DNA of 64,000 nucleotides from Escherichia virus TH22, in sequence record MT446396.1; one strand, 5' to 3'. The position numbers were made by a program, and so were the translations under genes. The notes beneath the pieces are model-generated. The model was not told the origin of the DNA. It worked only from the letters and a program-made list of their open reading frames with translations, and did not search any database. Each line of letters begins with the position of its first letter. Within the stretch, counting starts at the first letter, position 1. Below are positions 29,742 to 37,948 of this stretch, piece after piece.

Positions 29742-29771
29742 TAATACATGACCAAACAACATGGATTAAAT

Positions 29772-30095
29772 ATGGAATTACCAATTAAAGCAGTAGGTGA
29801 ATATATTATTTTGGTTTCTGAGCCAAAGCAAGCCGGTGATGAAGAAACTACGGCATCAGGTATAGTTATCGGAAAACTCCATCAGGGTGAAATCCCGGAG
29901 ATGTGTGAAGTATTTTCGGTTGGTCCGGATGTTCCTGAAGGATTCTGCGAAGTAGGTGATTTGACTCCTCTTCCGGTTGGCAAGATTGCAAACGTTCCAC
30001 ATCCTCTGGTTGCACTGGGACTTAAGCAGGCTAAAGAAGTTAAGCAGAAATTTGTGACTTGTCATTATAAAGCTGTTCCTTGTCTTTATAAGTAA
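29772..30095 (+). CDS. 31: co-chaperonin gp31 (GroES analogue)
   Basis: Strong match to recalled T4 gp31 ([51 protein letters not shown]); start at second in-frame ATG (alternative 29748). Confidence 0.9.
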
Positions 30096-31081: not shown

Positions 31082-31086
31082 GTTCA

Positions 31087-31110
31087 GGGACTCTTCGGAG
31101 TCCCTTTTTT
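31087..31110 (+). terminator. intrinsic terminator (GGGACTC-TTCG-GAGTCCC + T-run)
   Basis: Perfect hairpin followed by TTTTTT. Confidence 0.7.
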
Positions 31111-31125
31111 ATTTTCCATAAAGGG

Positions 31126-31155
31126 GTTTACAACAGGGTTGGTCCAGTGCATAAT
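31126..31155 (+). promoter_or_regulatory. early promoter (GTTTAC, N18, CATAAT) with conserved leader
   Basis: Leader nearly identical to those at 14892 and 54686. Confidence 0.55.
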
Positions 31156-32331: not shown

Positions 32332-32522
32332 AATTATTCTTATCACAAACTGTTCAGTTAAAAGGTGTGGGTATTCCTGGAATGATTTCAAAGGTCCTGC
32401 CTACGTTTAAATTAGGCAATACCCAAATTAAAGAAGCATATGCAGTCTTGTGGGTTGATGGAACTGAAGACGTTCGCATGGGTGGTGAGTTGTCTGTAAT
32501 CAAATGCTTAAAGCGAGGATAA
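32328..32522 (+). CDS. hypothetical protein (64 aa)
   Basis: ORF only. Confidence 0.45.
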   Translation: MKLFLSQTVQLKGVGIPGMISKVLPTFKLGNTQIKEAYAVLWVDGTEDVRMGGELSVIKCLKRG

Positions 32523-32523
32523 T

Positions 32524-32736
32524 ATGTTTAAGAAACTGATTCAGAAAATTTTGGGAACGGAAATGGTTGAAGTTACTTATCGCGTGACTGACGTAAGTCC
32601 ATGGGCCCGAAATATTGAACCATATACTAAAACAATTAAAATGCTGAAATCTGACGGTGGATTATCTATTAAAGACCGTTTACCTGGTTATGGTCATTGG
32701 GCTGATGTAGAGATTATCAGTGTCAAAAATGTCTGA
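32524..32736 (+). CDS. hypothetical protein (70 aa)
   Basis: ORF only. Confidence 0.45.
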   Translation: MFKKLIQKILGTEMVEVTYRVTDVSPWARNIEPYTKTIKMLKSDGGLSIKDRLPGYGHWADVEIISVKNV

Positions 32737-33187
32737 GTTAGAAATCAGAAGCAATTTCCCATGGCCATCATGTGCATTAAGTAACTTTGCTAAATGGCCT
32801 TTTGTTATGGAGGGTATCCAGTTTGGAGGTCTTGAAGGCTTCCTACAAGGGTGCAAGGTGAGAAATCATGAACAACAAAAACGTATATTTGGGATGTCCG
32901 GATTGGCCGCCCAGCAAAGTGGAAGAGCTTATGCAAGAGCTGCGGACCGTGGGACGCTTTTCTGGCTTGGAATTCCCTTTTCAAGATACTCTGCAGCATG
33001 GAAAGAGCTGTATACAAATGCATATTTTGAAGCAGCGCTCCAGAACCAAGGATTCCGCAATGCGTTACAATCCACAAAAGGCAAAGTTTTAAAGCATTCG
33101 ATGGCGAGCCACCTTACTGTTCATGATACAATATTGACTGAACAAGAATTTATTGACATACTTAACCAATTGAGAGATGCATTATGA
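32729..33187 (+). CDS. NADAR-like (YbiA/DUF1768 family) protein
   Basis: SNFAKWPF and LEGFLQGCKV motifs resemble recalled E. coli YbiA (FSNFAAWPI ... SEHYFQAQKF); start at first ATG (track ORF begins at an upstream GTG). Confidence 0.65.
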   Translation: MSELEIRSNFPWPSCALSNFAKWPFVMEGIQFGGLEGFLQGCKVRNHEQQKRIFGMSGLAAQQSGRAYARAADRGTLFWLGIPFSRYSAAWKELYTNAYFEAALQNQGFRNALQSTKGKVLKHSMASHLTVHDTILTEQEFIDILNQLRDAL

Positions 33188-34008
33188 AACCCGTTATTTT
33201 AACAGATATTGATGGCGTATGTTTGTCATGGCAGTCTGGCTTGCCTTATTTCGCTCAAAAATATAATTTACCCCTGGAACACATCCTTAAGATGATTCAG
33301 GATGAAAAATTTGTGACCCCTGGTAAACTTTTCAATTGTGATGAAGAGTTAGGCGCGCAGTTAATTGAAAAATATAACTGTTCAGACTTTATTCGCTATT
33401 TGTCTCCTTATGCGGATGCATTAAGGGTTATCAATAACCTCAAAGAGCAATATGATTTTGTGGCTGTTACAGCCCTGGGTGATTCTATTGATGCTCGCCT
33501 GAATCGTCAATTCAACCTGAATGCTTTGTTCCCTGGGGCATTTAAAGAAGTGATGATGTGCGGCCATACAGCTTCTAAAGAAGATTTGTTTCAGAAAGCG
33601 AAGACCAAATATAATGTCGTTTGTTATATTGATGACCTTGCCCACCATTGCGACCATGCGAGTGAAATTCTCGAGGTTCCGGTTTATTGGATGGCACGCG
33701 GCGAACGTGATGCTATTCCTAAAACAGCTTCCAAAGTTTTTAATTGGGACGATGTTGCTGGACAGCTTAAACTGAAACACAAAGATGAACCGGTCAAACC
33801 AGAATTCACTCCAGATGAACTCCGTAAACTGGAAGAGCTGTTTCGTGAAACTCGACGCCTTCAACAACAAATGCAGCAAGGCTGGCAGCCTGGTCAACCG
33901 TGGACTCCTGGGTATAATCCAGCATATCCATATCAATATGGTCAGCGTGTAGGTACTGGTATTGAATACTGGTACAATCAACCGACCGGTGGCCAAGGGG
34001 GTAATTGA
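33184..34008 (+). CDS. HAD-superfamily phosphatase-like protein with Q/P/G/Y-rich C-terminal tail
   Basis: N-terminal VILTDIDGV (DxDG[TV] HAD motif I) reminiscent of 5'(3')-deoxyribonucleotidases; low-complexity C-terminus QQGWQPGQPWTPGYNPAYPYQYGQ. Confidence 0.6.
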   Translation: MKPVILTDIDGVCLSWQSGLPYFAQKYNLPLEHILKMIQDEKFVTPGKLFNCDEELGAQLIEKYNCSDFIRYLSPYADALRVINNLKEQYDFVAVTALGDSIDARLNRQFNLNALFPGAFKEVMMCGHTASKEDLFQKAKTKYNVVCYIDDLAHHCDHASEILEVPVYWMARGERDAIPKTASKVFNWDDVAGQLKLKHKDEPVKPEFTPDELRKLEELFRETRRLQQQMQQGWQPGQPWTPGYNPAYPYQYGQRVGTGIEYWYNQPTGGQGGN

Positions 34009-34286
34009 TGTTTGTCGTTCATACTATTTCTGACCGTGGTCCAACTACCACGATGGATTACGGTCATGTTAACCAGTTTATTCGTCATGTGAATTATAAT
34101 TACTCGTTTGATATTAATCCGGCTAAAGATAACCCCGTTTGGCGTGAATGCGTTGAGCAAGGATTTATCTATGTTCACTTCATGACCAAAATGAAACCAG
34201 ATGGGGCAACTAAATTTGTGTTCACTTATCATAAGCGGCTGGATTTGCTTTTGGAAGACGTGGCATATAATAGAGTCAACGACTAA
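34008..34286 (+). CDS. hypothetical protein (92 aa)
   Basis: ATG overlapping upstream stop (TGATG). Confidence 0.5.
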   Translation: MFVVHTISDRGPTTTMDYGHVNQFIRHVNYNYSFDINPAKDNPVWRECVEQGFIYVHFMTKMKPDGATKFVFTYHKRLDLLLEDVAYNRVND

Positions 34287-34296
34287 GAGGTGATTA

Positions 34297-35829
34297 ATGA
34301 TTTTAGATATTTTAAATGAAATTGCTGCAACTGATTCTACGAAAGAGAAACAAGCTATCTTGGAATCGTATTCTGATAATGAAACCCTTAAACGTGTGTA
34401 TCGTTTGACATATTCCAAAGGCATCCAGTTCTATATCAAGAAATGGCCAAACGCTGGGTTAACTACCCAAAGCTTTGGCATGCTGAATATCGATGATATG
34501 CTTGACTTTATCGAATTCACATTAGCCGCGCGCAAATTAACAGGTAATGCTGCAATCGAGGAATTATCTGGCTATATTGCAGATGGTAAAAAAGATGATG
34601 TTGAAGTCTTGCGCCGCGTGATGATGCGTGACCTGGAATGTGGTGTGTCTGTATCAATTGCGAATAAGGTTTGGAAAGGTTTAATTCCTGAACAACCACA
34701 GATGCTCGCTTCTTCTTATGATGAAGCCGGTATTGCTAAGAACATTAAGTTCCCGGCATTTGCACAATTGAAAGCCGATGGTGCTCGGTGTTTTGCAGAA
34801 GTTCGTGGCGATGAGTTGGATGATGTTCGATTGCTATCCCGAGCTGGTAACGAATACCTTAAGCTTGACCTCCTTAAAAAGGAATTGATTGAAGCTACCC
34901 GTGAAGCGCGCGAGAGACATCCTGAGGGCGTTTTAATTGATGGCGAGTTAGTATACCATGAGCAGAAAGTAGCTCCCCAGAATGACGGTTTGGGCTTCCT
35001 TTTTGACGATTCAGATGAGATTGCTCCTGCAAAAGAATTTGCAGAATCAAGAACCTTTTCAAATGGCATGGCAAACAAATCATTAAAAGGAACTATTTCT
35101 GCGGCAGAAGCTTCTTGTATGAAATTCCAGGTTTGGGATTATGTTCCACTGATTGAAGTCTATTCTGATGTTAAGATTCTCAATCCACTGAAATATGATG
35201 TGCGTTTTGCTGTTCTGGAAAAGATGATTGCAGATAATGTGGTATTGCATGGTTTTGACCGCATGATTCTGATTGAAAACCATGTTGTTAACAATCTCGA
35301 TGAAGCGAAAGTTATCTATAAGAAATATGTAGATGAAGGTCTTGAAGGTATTATCCTTAAGAACATGGCATCGATTTGGGAAAACAAGCGCTCAAAGAAC
35401 CTGTATAAGTTCAAAGAAGTAATTGACATTGCAATGGAAATCATTGGATATTACGAGCACGATAAAGACCCGAATAAGATTGGCGGTGTGGTGCTTCGTT
35501 CTTCTTGTGGTAAGATTACAAATAACTGTGGTTCTGGTTTTAAAGACACAACTCAAGTCAAAGATAAGAAAACCAAAAAATGGGTTACTATTCCGATTGA
35601 GGAGCGTCATGAAATGGACCGTGAAGCCTTGATGGTTAAAGCACGTAAAGGTGAATTGGTTGGAATGATTGCCGACTGTGAATGCAATGGTTGGTTGACT
35701 TCCGAGACTCGTAAAGATAATACGGTTGCATTGTTCCTGCCGATTATTAAAGGGTTCCGTTTCGATAAAGACCATGCAGACACATTCGAAGATGTATTTG
35801 GCGACTGGTCAAAGACCGGGTTAAAATAA
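34297..35829 (+). CDS. 30: ATP-dependent DNA ligase gp30
   Basis: 510 aa; long stretches match recalled T4 ligase (MILDILNEIA...STK.KQAILE, KADGARCFAEVRGDELDDVRLLSRAGNEYL, EGVLIDGELVYHEQ). Confidence 0.95.
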   Translation: MILDILNEIAATDSTKEKQAILESYSDNETLKRVYRLTYSKGIQFYIKKWPNAGLTTQSFGMLNIDDMLDFIEFTLAARKLTGNAAIEELSGYIADGKKDDVEVLRRVMMRDLECGVSVSIANKVWKGLIPEQPQMLASSYDEAGIAKNIKFPAFAQLKADGARCFAEVRGDELDDVRLLSRAGNEYLKLDLLKKELIEATREARERHPEGVLIDGELVYHEQKVAPQNDGLGFLFDDSDEIAPAKEFAESRTFSNGMANKSLKGTISAAEASCMKFQVWDYVPLIEVYSDVKILNPLKYDVRFAVLEKMIADNVVLHGFDRMILIENHVVNNLDEAKVIYKKYVDEGLEGIILKNMASIWENKRSKNLYKFKEVIDIAMEIIGYYEHDKDPNKIGGVVLRSSCGKITNNCGSGFKDTTQVKDKKTKKWVTIPIEERHEMDREALMVKARKGELVGMIADCECNGWLTSETRKDNTVALFLPIIKGFRFDKDHADTFEDVFGDWSKTGLK

Positions 35830-35833
35830 CAAA

Positions 35834-35853
35834 AGGGCTTCGGCCCTTTTTTA
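35834..35853 (+). terminator. intrinsic terminator (GGGC-TTCG-GCCC + T-run)
   Basis: Seen in sequence after the ligase. Confidence 0.6.
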
Positions 35854-35887
35854 GTATAAATACATCATATTTTATAAGGAACCTATT

Positions 35888-37948
35888 ATGTCTGAACAAT
35901 TAAATGAACTCTTTGACAAATATATCGAAGCCTTCGGTTATCCTGTCATTAATATGAATCCAAAATACAAGGTCCCACAGGTTTGGCAATTTGGTGTTCC
36001 TGGGACCAATTCTCTTATGGCTCGTTTGATGCAATTCACGGGCAAAGAAACAGTTAAACAATATAAACGCGGCGATGCAATTGCCGAGGTATTCCTGTTA
36101 TCCGGAACTTCACACGGTCATGCTGTTCCTCTGAAGGGTGGTTTAGGTGAAAAACCTCTTGATGCAATTAACTTGATTTTTACTACAGTCTGGGAAAGCA
36201 TTAAACTAGGCAAACCTGATGTAGTCTTGTTCCGTTTCCCATCCAAAAAGATGAAAGGACAAGACCAAGCTATTATTCGTATTATGAATCGACTGATTCA
36301 AATGAAAACCAGCGGACGTTATCATGTTCTTCCGAATGCTTCTGGCCTTGGTAAAAAGAACGCTTATGTAATTATGTACAAAAGGGGTGTTGACCTGCTT
36401 TCAGTCGATGGTATGCCACCAGTCCCTGAGAAATATAAAAAAGTCGAAACTAAAGTTGGTGATGTATTCACCAATAAAGATAATGGTGCACAAGTATCCA
36501 AACAAGAAATTGCAGCCGAGATTCTGATTGACGCAGCAAACAAAAAGACCGATGCTGCTGTTGCCCAGAAAACTAAAATCAGTCGCCGAGCTATTGCACA
36601 AGCCCAGTACGCTCCAAGTGATTCCGTGCCAGAAGGTTGGGACGAAATCGATGCAGAAGCTGCTAAGTTTAGTCGACCGGCTACGGCAGAACTTATCGAT
36701 GATTATGAAGAACTGGAAATTTTTGTTCGACCTTCCGAAACGAATACTATGGCTCGTATGCGCGCAGCAGATACGGCTATGCGAGCAAATGGTGTTTGGA
36801 AAGAAGAAATTCGTGTTGAAGACTCTGACCCAATTTTTAACCGTATGCATCGCGAACTTAAACGTGCTCCAGTTGGTAGTATGAAGCAGATGCAGATTTT
36901 TGCCGAATCATGCGCAGAGATTCTTAACCTTCGCAAAGCCGCATTTATCGAAAGAAAAATGAATGATGCTCCTCCTAATGTGGATGCAGCCACTTATGCA
37001 GCCTCGCTCTGGGAAAAAGAATACACAAGCGCCATTCGTGTTGCAGTTAAAGACTTTGCTGAAGAAGCATCAGAAAATACTCTTAATTTCACAGCAGGGT
37101 ATACTGACAACCGTTTCCATTATGGTCAGCGAGAAGCAATTGCAGATTATTGTGGAGCAAACTATGCCGATATTAATAATTATTTGATGGGCAAATATTA
37201 TGAAGAAGAAGCTGAATTCCTAAATCTAGACAGAGTTGTCGAAACAATTAAGGAATTGGATTCGGCCTTTGAAATTGGACATAAGTTGCCACCTAATACA
37301 ACTCTTTGGCGTGGTCAATATTTAAACGTTCCTACATTTGATAAAATTAAGAAATCTAAATTATTTTATTTCAGGAACTATGTATCAACGTCGTTTAAAC
37401 CGATTATCTTTGGTGGCTGGGTGGCGAACGTTGCTATGGCTGCAGTTCATCAGGACTATCGTGATGGGACATCTTTCCAGGCTGATGACGAAATTGTTTT
37501 ACCAGATATGCCGGAAGCACGCCGCGACCACGTAATGATGCATGTTGGTTGGAAAATTTCTGGGGCGGACTTAATTAACGTAATTGTTCCTGGGGAATTG
37601 TCAGGCAACCCATCCGAGCAGGAAGTTATTCTTCCTCGTGGGACTGTAGTTAAGATTACCAAAATTACTGATGCTTCGTATCAAGGAAACGCGAACGTCA
37701 AAATGCTGGAAGCTGATATCCAGACTACGGACCAACTGGATGAAAATGCAGTTATCTATGATGGTGATGTGTTGATGGAAACTGGTGAGCTTGTCGTTTA
37801 TCAGGGCGAGGAAACAGAAGAGCCAGTAGAATCTGTTGACTTTGCATCGTTTGCATCCTCTGGGGTAACGAAGAAAGTCAATCAAGGTCTTGGTATTCTT
37901 GCTAGTTGTATTAATTTGGAAGCTATTCCTCCTAAATTCCTTTCGTAA
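35888..37948 (+). CDS. alt: Alt ADP-ribosyltransferase (packaged, modifies host RNA polymerase)
   Basis: 686 aa; match to recalled T4 Alt (KISRRAIAQ, FYFRNYVSTS, EVILPRG.VVK..KITDASY, IYDGD.LMETGELV, VDFASF.SS). Confidence 0.9.
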   Translation: MSEQLNELFDKYIEAFGYPVINMNPKYKVPQVWQFGVPGTNSLMARLMQFTGKETVKQYKRGDAIAEVFLLSGTSHGHAVPLKGGLGEKPLDAINLIFTTVWESIKLGKPDVVLFRFPSKKMKGQDQAIIRIMNRLIQMKTSGRYHVLPNASGLGKKNAYVIMYKRGVDLLSVDGMPPVPEKYKKVETKVGDVFTNKDNGAQVSKQEIAAEILIDAANKKTDAAVAQKTKISRRAIAQAQYAPSDSVPEGWDEIDAEAAKFSRPATAELIDDYEELEIFVRPSETNTMARMRAADTAMRANGVWKEEIRVEDSDPIFNRMHRELKRAPVGSMKQMQIFAESCAEILNLRKAAFIERKMNDAPPNVDAATYAASLWEKEYTSAIRVAVKDFAEEASENTLNFTAGYTDNRFHYGQREAIADYCGANYADINNYLMGKYYEEEAEFLNLDRVVETIKELDSAFEIGHKLPPNTTLWRGQYLNVPTFDKIKKSKLFYFRNYVSTSFKPIIFGGWVANVAMAAVHQDYRDGTSFQADDEIVLPDMPEARRDHVMMHVGWKISGADLINVIVPGELSGNPSEQEVILPRGTVVKITKITDASYQGNANVKMLEADIQTTDQLDENAVIYDGDVLMETGELVVYQGEETEEPVESVDFASFASSGVTKKVNQGLGILASCINLEAIPPKFLS

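Follow-up and report, generated by a model that had tools for sequence, protein, structure and literature searches.

The gp30.3 protein of phage T4, named AdfN, is a phage-type NADAR that strips the guanine ADP-ribose made by DarT1 from DNA (Mol Cell 2023 PMC11543638, Toxins 2024 PMC11125620, Nat Commun 2025 PMC11825919). Purified T4 AdfN alone de-ADP-ribosylates G-ADPr DNA in vitro (PMC11125620), and the protein is both necessary and sufficient against DarTG1 (PMC11825919). Its function is abolished by an E36A or a K43A substitution, the RB69 allele, which is 15 residues short at the C-terminus, is inactive and RB69 is rescued by AdfN alone supplied in trans (PMC11825919). The phage NADAR class is defined by a histidine (H123 in AdfN) at the position taken by Glu in YbiA and by Asp in DarG1 (PMC11125620, PMC11543638). 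AdfN rescues T-even phages and hardly T5 or Bas25, and full activity is seen only in T-even infection; the protein does not detoxify DarT1 in uninfected cells, and DNA modification is no explanation (PMC11825919). In published T4 transposon sequencing on one laboratory host carrying DarTG1 on a plasmid, insertions in 30.3 were lost (log2FC -7.25, q=0), whereas those in the adjacent gene 30.2 were neutral (log2FC -0.12, p=0.61, q=1, 71 TA sites), as were those in alt (log2FC -0.01). The published value for 30.2 in M9 medium was log2FC -0.10, and the gene is non-essential in T4, with insertions recovered at 72 of 72 TA sites.

We analyzed a window of 64,000 nucleotides from Escherichia virus TH22 (sequence record MT446396.1), a T4-like coliphage that shares ~2 kb at 100% identity with phages TH55 and UPEC07. 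Note that the annotation of UPEC07 carries baseplate names across the matching 2-kb stretch, which is thus mislabelled, and that in the closest records 30.2 is given as "hypothetical protein" or wrongly labelled. The gene order of the window, 30.4-30.3-30.2-30.1-30-alt, matches that of T4 (Table 1). The start of ORF1 (adfN) was set at the ATG at 32729, not at the GTG at 32720 given in the program-made list of open reading frames, because the T4 orthologue has the N-terminus MSELEIR. The ORF1 protein includes the sequences ALSNFAKWPF and LEGFLQGCKV. The ORF2 (30.2) protein begins MKPVILTDIDGV, and Q, P, G, Y, N and W make up 53% of its final 81 residues. The original prediction, made from the letters of the window, had both frames, their motifs, the overlapping stop and the Q/P/G/Y-rich tail right, and correctly put the pair upstream of DNA ligase with Alt ~2 kb downstream; the overlap is ATGA and alt starts 1.9 kb past the end of ORF2. 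An equal 4-nt overlap of adfN and 30.2 is found in T4 (128307-128310), the last 8 nt of the 30.4 orthologue lie within adfN and the 30.2 stop overlaps the 30.1 ATG as TGATG. With tblastn, ORF1 was located in 1510 phage records; for the ORF2 core the number was 1439, and ORF2 matches phrog_420 (E=1e-78). Judged from sequence, both are genuine genes and not chance open reading frames. A promoter and terminator scan gave 22 promoter-like sites versus 15.5 +/- 4.2 in shuffles, which is no enrichment. The start of the 30.8-to-30 transcription unit is hinted at only by a hairpin at 31086-31105 and by the promoter-like sites that follow.

Table 1 Features of the adfN-30.2 region, in window coordinates
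Feature	Coordinates	Strand	Basis
Gene 30.4 orthologue, 70 aa	32524..32736	+	phrog_2042 E=1e-34; arrangement as in T4
adfN (ORF1; T4 gene 30.3 orthologue), phage-type NADAR, predicted DNA guanine-ADP-ribosyl glycohydrolase, 152 aa; ATG start, TGA at 33185-33187	32729..33187	+	PF08010, T4 identity, AF2 model
E36 codon (GAA), predicted catalytic glutamate	32834..32836	+	Invariant in 39 homologues
K43 codon (AAG), predicted catalytic lysine	32855..32857	+	Kept in at least 90% of 39 homologues
H123 codon (CAT), phage-NADAR marker histidine (YbiA: Glu; DarG1: Asp)	33095..33097	+	Invariant in 39 homologues
ATGA overlap of adfN stop (TGA) and 30.2 start (ATG)	33184..33187	+	Sequence read directly
T4 gene 30.2 orthologue (ORF2), predicted C1-capped HAD-superfamily phosphatase, C-terminal helix and low-complexity tail, 274 aa; ATG start, TGA at 34006-34008	33184..34008	+	
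HAD motif I, D8-I-D10 (predicted nucleophile and general acid/base Asp)	33205..33213	+	Invariant in 41 homologues; at least 90% of 142 distant relatives
HAD motif II, T96	33469..33471	+	At least 90% of homologues; end of strand 91-96
HAD motif III, K132	33577..33579	+	Invariant in homologues; at least 90% of distant relatives
HAD motif IV, D150-D151 (predicted Mg2+ ligands)	33631..33636	+	Invariant; end of strand 145-150
Predicted long helix, aa 210-233, linking HAD core and tail	33811..33882	+	AF2 secondary structure, pLDDT ~93
Predicted disordered Q/P/G/Y/W-rich tail, aa 236-274, lineage-variable	33889..34005	+	pLDDT 46-53
Short conserved motif GIEYWYNQPT near gp30.2 C-terminus	33958..33987	+	Pattern G[IVL]EY[LW]xxxPT
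Gene 30.1 orthologue (DUF3045)	34008..34286	+	Pfam PF11243 E=9e-18
Gene 30, ATP-dependent DNA ligase (context)	34297..35829	+	Pfam PF01068 E=2e-28
alt, virion Alt-type ADP-ribosyltransferase (context, outside the mechanism)	35888..37948	+	PF03496 E=1e-19; 32% identity to T4 Alt

The ORF1 product aligns without gaps to T4 gp30.3, a protein of the same length, at 84% identity and its gene has the T4 flanks, 30.4 and 30.2; by these sequence measures it is the orthologue of AdfN and a NADAR-superfamily enzyme. The match to PF08010 (Phage_30_3) has E=1.1e-62 and 210.4 bits versus a cut-off of 36, and covers profile positions 2-138 of 138. The Pfam NADAR model PF08719, the profile by which the original prediction expected the protein to be recognized, gave no match at E<=1, the phage NADAR clade being a separate Pfam family, PF08010. 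Because PF08719 fails on ORF1, the link to NADARs was built from PF08010, the fold, the catalytic residues and a set of bridging homologues, and on these the NADAR-like call on ORF1 was borne out. The AF2 model of the protein has pLDDT 92.8 and pTM 0.88, and in a Foldseek search of the PDB its sole matches with a probability of at least 0.99 were YbiA (2b3w; E=4.7e-5, TM 0.69), PnNADAR (8bau) and a Geobacter NADAR (8bat). The predicted catalytic residues are conserved (Table 1), and H123 lies where the final strand of the model (120-122) ends. As to bridging homologues, four members of the ORF1 family have precomputed PF08719 matches. The family profile retrieved YbiA from the PDB sequences at E=0.0078, phmmer with ORF1 against the same sequences gave zero matches, and NCBIfam and PADLOC gave nothing useful for ORF1 or ORF2. 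The C-terminus of the protein (...TILTEQEFIDILNQLRDAL) is intact, as the alignment reaches the last residue of T4 AdfN, and the C-terminal helix (138-151) is modelled with high confidence. Because of the 84% identity, the equal length, the retention of the catalytic residues and the intact C-terminus, we infer that the ORF1 product shares the DNA de-ADP-ribosylation and DarTG1 escape activities of T4 AdfN. The NADAR function of T4 30.3 is already known, and the proposal that ORF1 erases the DarT mark as a counter-defence thus names an activity shown for gp30.3/AdfN (PMC11543638, PMC11125620, PMC11825919).

The ORF2 product is orthologous to T4 gp30.2 and, read from its motifs and AF2 model, is a C1-capped HAD-fold phosphatase with invariant motifs I-IV. 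The model has a Rossmann-like HAD core of pLDDT >93 with a cap insert, a helical segment of ~80 residues between motifs I and II (C1 cap), and motifs II-IV are at the expected strand ends. The second Asp of the motif I DxD is the mark of phosphotransferases as opposed to dehalogenases. With D8, D10, T96, K132 and D150/D151 all intact, the fold is that of a HAD enzyme and the protein is predicted to be catalytically competent. The expected HAD assignment was supported, with motifs I-IV invariant, but gp30.2 scored below cut-off with the Pfam HAD-clan models (HAD_2, 13 bits versus 23.8, E=0.11); PF00702 was matched at E<=0.1 by 9 of 41 family members, at best with E=3.5e-4. The C-terminal tail is at least 40 residues long in 59 of 117 homologues, and in 52 fewer than 25 residues follow the core. 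The pattern G[IVL]EY[LW]xxxPT is found 16-20 residues before the end in 16 tailed homologues, among them the close T4-type protein P0002. A literature search for gp30.2 found no paper assigning it a function or biochemical activity.

By transitive homology, the nearest family of gp30.2 appears to be the 5'(3')-deoxyribonucleotidases (NT5C), the resemblance put forward in the original prediction. The best Foldseek match to the gp30.2 model was cdN (2jao, E=5e-8). The same protein came first in searches of the PDB sequences with the single sequence and with the profile, at non-significant values (E=0.13-0.28; profile, E=0.13). The NT5C model PF06941 gave no match to gp30.2 itself; it matched 5 of 41 close homologues at E<=0.1 and, at E<=1e-3, 33 of the 141 distant relatives retrieved with the gp30.2 profile (E<=2.4e-19), among which NT5C was the commonest family matched. 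Three of ten distant relatives scanned singly (P0360, P0370 and P0377) exceeded its 24.8-bit gathering cut-off. In the HMMER alignment to 2jao, W16, F43 and Y64 of gp30.2, each present in at least 90% of homologues, lie opposite F20, F46 and Y67 of mouse cdN, which are reportedly base-pocket residues (Wallden et al. 2007). Domain fusions in distant relatives (P0292, P0346, P0238, P0278 and others) were considered as a hint to function and discarded, the extra regions having no Pfam match.

The two genes are neighbors in some phages. A 30.2-type gene is within 6 kb in 20 of 80 NADAR loci, with none that near in the other 60, and a NADAR is within 6 kb of 30.2 in 34 of 69 loci of the latter gene, with both genes on one strand and the NADAR first. 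In several complete genomes they are ~55-60 kb apart, and the NADAR of Jiaodavirus is within a tRNA cluster. The order NADAR-30.2-ligase is common to Tevenvirinae and Twarogvirinae, and this order, together with the overlap of the genes, is compatible with some selective linkage of adfN and 30.2.

It is likely, in our judgment, that adfN and 30.2 are two independent accessory genes of the T4 30.x early block, co-transcribed and overlapping and not a two-component system, and conserved gene order is the best reading of their pairing. AdfN would be a NADAR hydrolase reduced to the core. When a DarTG1 host fires DarT1, the guanines of the phage DNA would become ADP-ribosylated and replication would stall; AdfN, through E36, K43 and the H123 typical of phage NADARs, would cut the guanine-N2-ribose bond, thereby releasing ADP-ribose and restoring plain guanine, and the phage would escape. 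The gp30.2 protein would be a HAD phosphomonoesterase that depends on Mg2+ and has a helical C1 cap. In the HAD superfamily the C1 cap accompanies small substrates and therefore a small-molecule substrate is expected for gp30.2, not a polymer end. As its nearest relatives seem to be 5'(3')-deoxyribonucleotidases, the likeliest reaction would therefore be dephosphorylation of a (deoxy)nucleoside monophosphate or of some comparable small phosphoester. The variable C-terminal part, made up of the helix and the P/W/Y-rich tail, is probably an appendage for docking or localisation.

Alternatively, gp30.2 could serve in counter-defence or host takeover, independently of DarTG, by destroying a nucleotide-pool precursor or a phosphorylated small-molecule signal, and would then show a phenotype only in hosts having the matching system. 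The gene is near-universal in the Straboviridae (1439 records) yet fully dispensable on K-12 whether the medium is LB or M9, as is typical of genes that are needed under certain conditions, and the block already holds one anti-defence gene. Moreover, the tail evolves fast and is lineage-specific with short conserved motifs, which suggests a changing binding partner. However, PADLOC and the known anti-defence families gave no match, 30.2 is not highlighted among the clinical-isolate hits in main-text passages of the transposon study and nucleotide-pool housekeeping fits the observations equally well. We consider such a role unlikely, and are no less doubtful of its most specific form, in which gp30.2, instead of being a housekeeping nucleotidase, is a conditionally required counter-defence or host-takeover enzyme for a specific small phosphoester and its tail, with short motifs such as GIEY(L/W)xxxPT, directs it to a partner protein or complex. 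In a weaker form of this idea, gp30.2 would contribute to the dependence of AdfN on T-even infection.

The position of 30.2, two genes upstream of ligase at all loci examined and directly upstream in an Acinetobacter phage, together with a weak match to phrog_415 "polynucleotide kinase" (E=0.0019), could be taken to mean that gp30.2 is an end-healing 3'-phosphatase that readies nicks for the neighboring DNA ligase. This is improbable given the large helical C1 cap that the model places above the active site; Pnkp-type phosphatases are, to our knowledge, capless. The sequence relatives are also NT5C-type, and T4-like phages already encode a Pnkp.

The functional pair of the original prediction was not supported. 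As a coupled module, gp30.2 would process the released ADP-ribose or a phosphorylated derivative of it, or would be the T-even factor that AdfN needs in vivo, for which the ATGA overlap, the shared strand and order and the T-even limitation of AdfN rescue, with no detoxification in uninfected cells and no role for DNA modification, can be cited. RB69, the phage rescued in trans, presumably has its own 30.2 gene, and if so, the sufficiency of AdfN is known only alongside gp30.2. We nevertheless think coupling very improbable, given that 30.2 insertions are neutral on DarTG1 when 30.3 insertions are lost, that purified AdfN acts on DNA ADP-ribose by itself, that the genes adjoin in some lineages only, that HAD phosphatases act on phosphomonoesters, of which free ADP-ribose has none, and that stop/start overlaps are usual in the block (30.4/30.3 and 30.2/30.1). 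Since the DarTG1 data come from one laboratory host with plasmid DarTG1, 30.2 may make a conditional or redundant contribution to escape. Alt was considered as a functional partner and rejected, as it is neutral on DarTG1 in the T4 transposon sequencing. Alt targets proteins, not DNA guanine.

With adfN and 30.2 read as independent genes, the 152-aa gene can be annotated adfN, and its presence would predict resistance to DarTG1-type defence in this phage and in the related TH55 and UPEC07, a prediction useful in picking therapeutic T4-like phages. A suitable name for the 30.2 product is HAD-family, NT5C-like phosphatase. It is among the few enzyme-like, near-universal T4-family genes without a phenotype, and thus a reasonable target for substrate screening. 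The current understanding of DarT/NADAR biology is unchanged by these findings.

Among the known systems, the DarG1/BC4488-type and YbiA-type NADARs (8bat, 8bau and 2b3w; PMC11543638) resemble the ORF1 protein in fold (Foldseek TM 0.56-0.69), in the Glu/Lys pair and, by analogy, in a presumed guanine-ADP-ribose hydrolase chemistry. The phage protein differs in having His where the residues of YbiA and DarG1 are Glu and Asp, respectively, in belonging to PF08010 and not PF08719, in being a bare core whereas DarG1 has extra N-terminal elements, and in not being encoded beside a DarT toxin. The T5 deoxynucleoside-5'-monophosphatase Dmp is, like gp30.2, a phage early enzyme with a HAD-type motif I (DxDGT), but was rejected as a characterised dNMPase relative; it shows no specific kinship to gp30.2 (hhalign probability 1.4%) and matches no Pfam family, and hence is an analogy at most. 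The cdN/mdN and bacterial NT5C-like enzymes (PF06941; 2jao, 2i7d, 1q92 and 3bwv) share with gp30.2 the HAD core, the helical C1 cap and the DxDGV motif with an aromatic residue at +8 and then SGL. In contrast, identity to gp30.2 is just 15-21%, gp30.2 falls under every Pfam threshold and it ends in an additional helix and ~75 residues of low-complexity tail. The closest system is T4 AdfN, an orthologue of 152 aa and 84% identity in the same slot between 30.4 and 30.2, with E36, K43, the phage-type H123 and an intact C-terminal helix; ORF1 differs from it by 24 substitutions, none of them at conserved catalytic positions.

The source of the window is, by sequence, a T4-like coliphage: a 2-kb query matched Escherichia virus TH55 and phage UPEC07 at 100% identity and VR7-type phages at 93%. 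The gene order, drawn from the ORF list, family matches, and the T4 annotation, is gp31, rIII, 30.9, a hairpin, 30.8, 30.7, 30.6, 30.5, 30.4, ORF1, ORF2, 30.1, ligase, and alt (rIII, 30.9, and 30.6-30.4, like gp31, were named from ORF size and position versus T4). This order, together with the family matches and T4 annotation, identifies ORF1 as T4 gene 30.3 and ORF2 as T4 gene 30.2. Both ORFs, with the motifs quoted in the original prediction, were read from the window, and they share an ATGA (33184-33187).

Features of the TH22 locus, with positions in the window
Feature	Position	Strand	Remarks
gp31	29748-30095		Named from ORF size and position versus T4
Hairpin 3' of 30.9	31086-31105		Strong, terminator-like; AGGGACTCTTCGGAGTCCCT then T run
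30.8			PF06019
30.7			PF06919
30.4	32524-32736	+	8-nt overlap with adfN start
ORF1 (adfN)	32729-33187	+	152 aa; contains ALSNFAKWPF and LEGFLQGCKV
E36 codon	32834-32836	+	Invariant in 39 diverse homologues
K43 codon	32855-32857	+	Kept in at least 90% of 39 diverse homologues
30.3'-like ORF	32868-33092	+	74 aa, ATG start, +1 frame within adfN
H123 codon	33095-33097	+	Invariant in 39 diverse homologues
ORF2 (30.2)	33184-34008	+	274 aa; N terminus MKPVILTDIDGV; C-terminal tail 53% Q/P/G/Y/N/W
ORF2 tail motif	33958-33987	+	aa 259-268; G[IVL]EY[LW]xxxPT
30.1			DUF3045
Ligase	34297-35829		PF01068
Hairpin after ligase	35831-35850		In the ligase-alt gap
alt			PF03496; 32% identity to T4 Alt

Promoter-like sites lie immediately after the first hairpin (window 31086-31155), and the 30.8-to-ligase transcription unit probably begins just past it. 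The ligase has 510 aa versus 487 aa in T4. The ligase-alt gap is only 58 bp, and the ORF list contains no alt.1-like ORF between these genes (window 34297-35887). Note that in the 2-kb regions of MW250787.1 (UPEC07) and PP693301.1 (vB_YenM_P8) matching window 32400-34400, the 30.x genes are annotated as 'baseplate tail tube cap protein' and 'baseplate hub', which look like mis-annotations.

ORF1 matched Pfam PF08010 ('Phage_30_3') with 210 bits (E=1e-62) and aligned without gaps to T4 gp30.3, also 152 aa, with 84% identity and a complete C terminus. On these sequence matches ORF1 is adfN. The AlphaFold model, built on an alignment of the 39 diverse homologues (pLDDT 92.8, pTM 0.88), had E. coli YbiA as its best PDB match (E=4.7e-5, TM 0.69), and the only two other meaningful matches were a Phytophthora NADAR with ADP-ribose and the Geobacter lovleyi DarG1-type NADAR. 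The expected NADAR likeness was borne out, and the window allele has catalytic residues E36 and K43 and the phage-type H123. The Pfam NADAR profile PF08719, proposed as a check, gave no match to ORF1 at E<=1, because the phage clade is a family apart in Pfam; both PF08719 and PF08010 are assigned to some ORF1 homologues, and a profile of the ORF1 family matched YbiA at E=0.0078.

The internal 30.3'-like ORF corresponds to the annotated T4 gene 30.3'. Among 13 close alleles, 12 retain its 76 codons without a stop (the exception is L009) and two (L002 and L006) lack its ATG, a comparison that argues only weakly for constraint. Several T4-like phages, e.g., SV76, UGJNEcP4, and NR1, have gp30.3 products that are truncated or in pieces (89-126 aa; clusters P0120-P0122, P0129, P0131, P0132, and P0135); by comparison with RB69, whose allele is truncated, these may be natural DarTG1-sensitive variants.

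The NADAR biology has already been published for the T4 orthologue, and the guess of a counter-defence against DarT was right for that protein (PMC11125620, PMC11825919). The phage NADAR class was defined by its His at the position of the YbiA Glu or DarG1 Asp (Schuller et al., Mol Cell 2023, PMC11543638). T4 gp30.3 strips guanine-linked ADP-ribose from DNA in vitro (Toxins 2024, PMC11125620). The Methods of that paper give the construct as 'gp30.3; residues 1-208' versus 152 aa in NC_000866, a figure that may include tag or vector residues. The name AdfN comes from Johannesman et al. (Nat Commun 2025, PMC11825919), who found the protein necessary and sufficient for T-even phage resistance to DarTG1; E36A and K43A each killed activity, and the RB69 allele, which naturally lacks its last 15 residues, was inactive. 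Purified AdfN is active alone in vitro (PMC11125620, PMC11825919), and its full activity only during T-even infection is a published puzzle (PMC11825919).

The remaining proposal, that NADAR and phosphatase form a functional module, is not supported. In the HIDEN-SEQ preprint (bioRxiv 2025.11.20.689424; T4 transposon sequencing, sheet Data S6), 30.3 was essential only on the DarTG1 host (log2FC -7.25, q=0); 30.2 was neutral there (log2FC -0.12, p=0.61, q=1, 71 TA sites), as was alt (log2FC -0.01, not significant). The same study gives 30.2 as non-essential (insertions in 72/72 sites) and neutral in M9 versus LB. Given its neutrality on DarTG1, gp30.2 is unlikely to explain the T-even dependence of AdfN, but a redundant contribution is conceivable. 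Gene 30.4 was depleted on DarTG1 (log2FC -1.79, q=0.014 in Data S6). As 30.4 lies upstream of adfN and overlaps its start, polarity on adfN would account for the depletion most simply; a role of 30.4 itself is possible.

Gene order gave a locally mixed picture. Nearly all sequenced T4-family phages carry both genes (30.2 core, 1439 records; NADAR, 1510 records), so genome-level co-occurrence is uninformative. A gp30.3-type NADAR lay within 6 kb of 30.2 in 34/69 viral loci, always upstream on the same strand, and only 20/80 NADAR loci had 30.2 within 6 kb. Comparison of contig ranges placed the genes ~55-60 kb apart in several complete genomes, and in Klebsiella phage Metamorpho (Jiaodavirus, L151; MT701588.1 103754-104197) the NADAR is located in the tRNA cluster, a long way from 30.2. 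The Jiaodavirus arrangement suggests that the anti-DarT gene was relocated, or lost and re-acquired, within Tevenvirinae. The NADAR-30.2-ligase-alt order persists in Acinetobacter Lazarusvirus, a different subfamily, and the adjacency is therefore old, which is also expected from a conserved T4 backbone. HAD enzymes cleave phosphomonoesters, and ADP-ribose, the AdfN product, has none.

The remaining interest is gp30.2, an orphan phosphatase that carries a variable tail. ORF2 matched phrog_420 ('unknown function') at E=1e-78 and T4 gp30.2 with 72% identity. All four HAD motifs are fixed across 41 aligned homologues: D8 and D10 (motif I; DxD, phosphotransferase form), T96 (II), K132 (III), and D150-D151 (IV). 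The model has a core (residues 1-200, pLDDT above 93) with an ~80-residue all-helical insert between motifs I and II, the C1 cap; after the core, a long helix at residues 210-233 leads into a disordered tail. By sequence and model, ORF2 is a real, conserved, and apparently catalytically intact HAD phosphatase. Some database records label such proteins 'putative phosphatase', 'HAD-like', or '5'(3')-deoxyribonucleotidase'.

The predicted low-complexity tail is present. At least 40 residues follow the core in 59/117 homologues and fewer than 25 in 52/117; tails vary by lineage, with short motifs kept within each. G[IVL]EY[LW]xxxPT, ~16-20 residues from the end within otherwise divergent, disordered tails, is common to 16 sequences including the window protein and the close T4-type P0002 (the homologues are P0002, P0022-P0032, P0043, P0046, and P0055). 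Other lineages end in LRAYY, PDYxLLNKVTANDS, or GDIPEWAKFPRLT. This pattern suggests a docking appendage that is modular and evolves fast, and G[IVL]EY[LW]xxxPT may be a docking peptide.

The expectation of a HAD protein held for fold and motifs; in the Pfam scan the only match was HAD_2, sub-threshold at E=0.11. T5 Dmp, the classical phage dNMPase, has no specific relationship to gp30.2. The family profile found 1428 relatives among 1.84 billion representatives. Of the 141 next-most-distant (E<=2.4e-19), 33 had a Pfam NT5C match at E<=1e-3, a count that no other family reached; of the ten scanned singly, three passed the curated threshold of NT5C. The top Foldseek match of the gp30.2 model was mouse cytosolic 5'(3')-deoxyribonucleotidase (2jao, E=5e-8), with human cdN, mdN, and the bacterial deoxyribonucleotidase-like 3bwv also high. 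The 2jao chain was also the best PDB sequence match, at non-significant values (E=0.28 single protein, E=0.13 profile), and in the HMMER alignment W16, F43, and Y64, all of them conserved, align with F20, F46, and Y67 of mouse cdN, which we take to be base-pocket aromatics. By transitive homology, the structural, PDB sequence, and NT5C matches make gp30.2 probably a divergent branch that adjoins the NT5C family and may belong to it.
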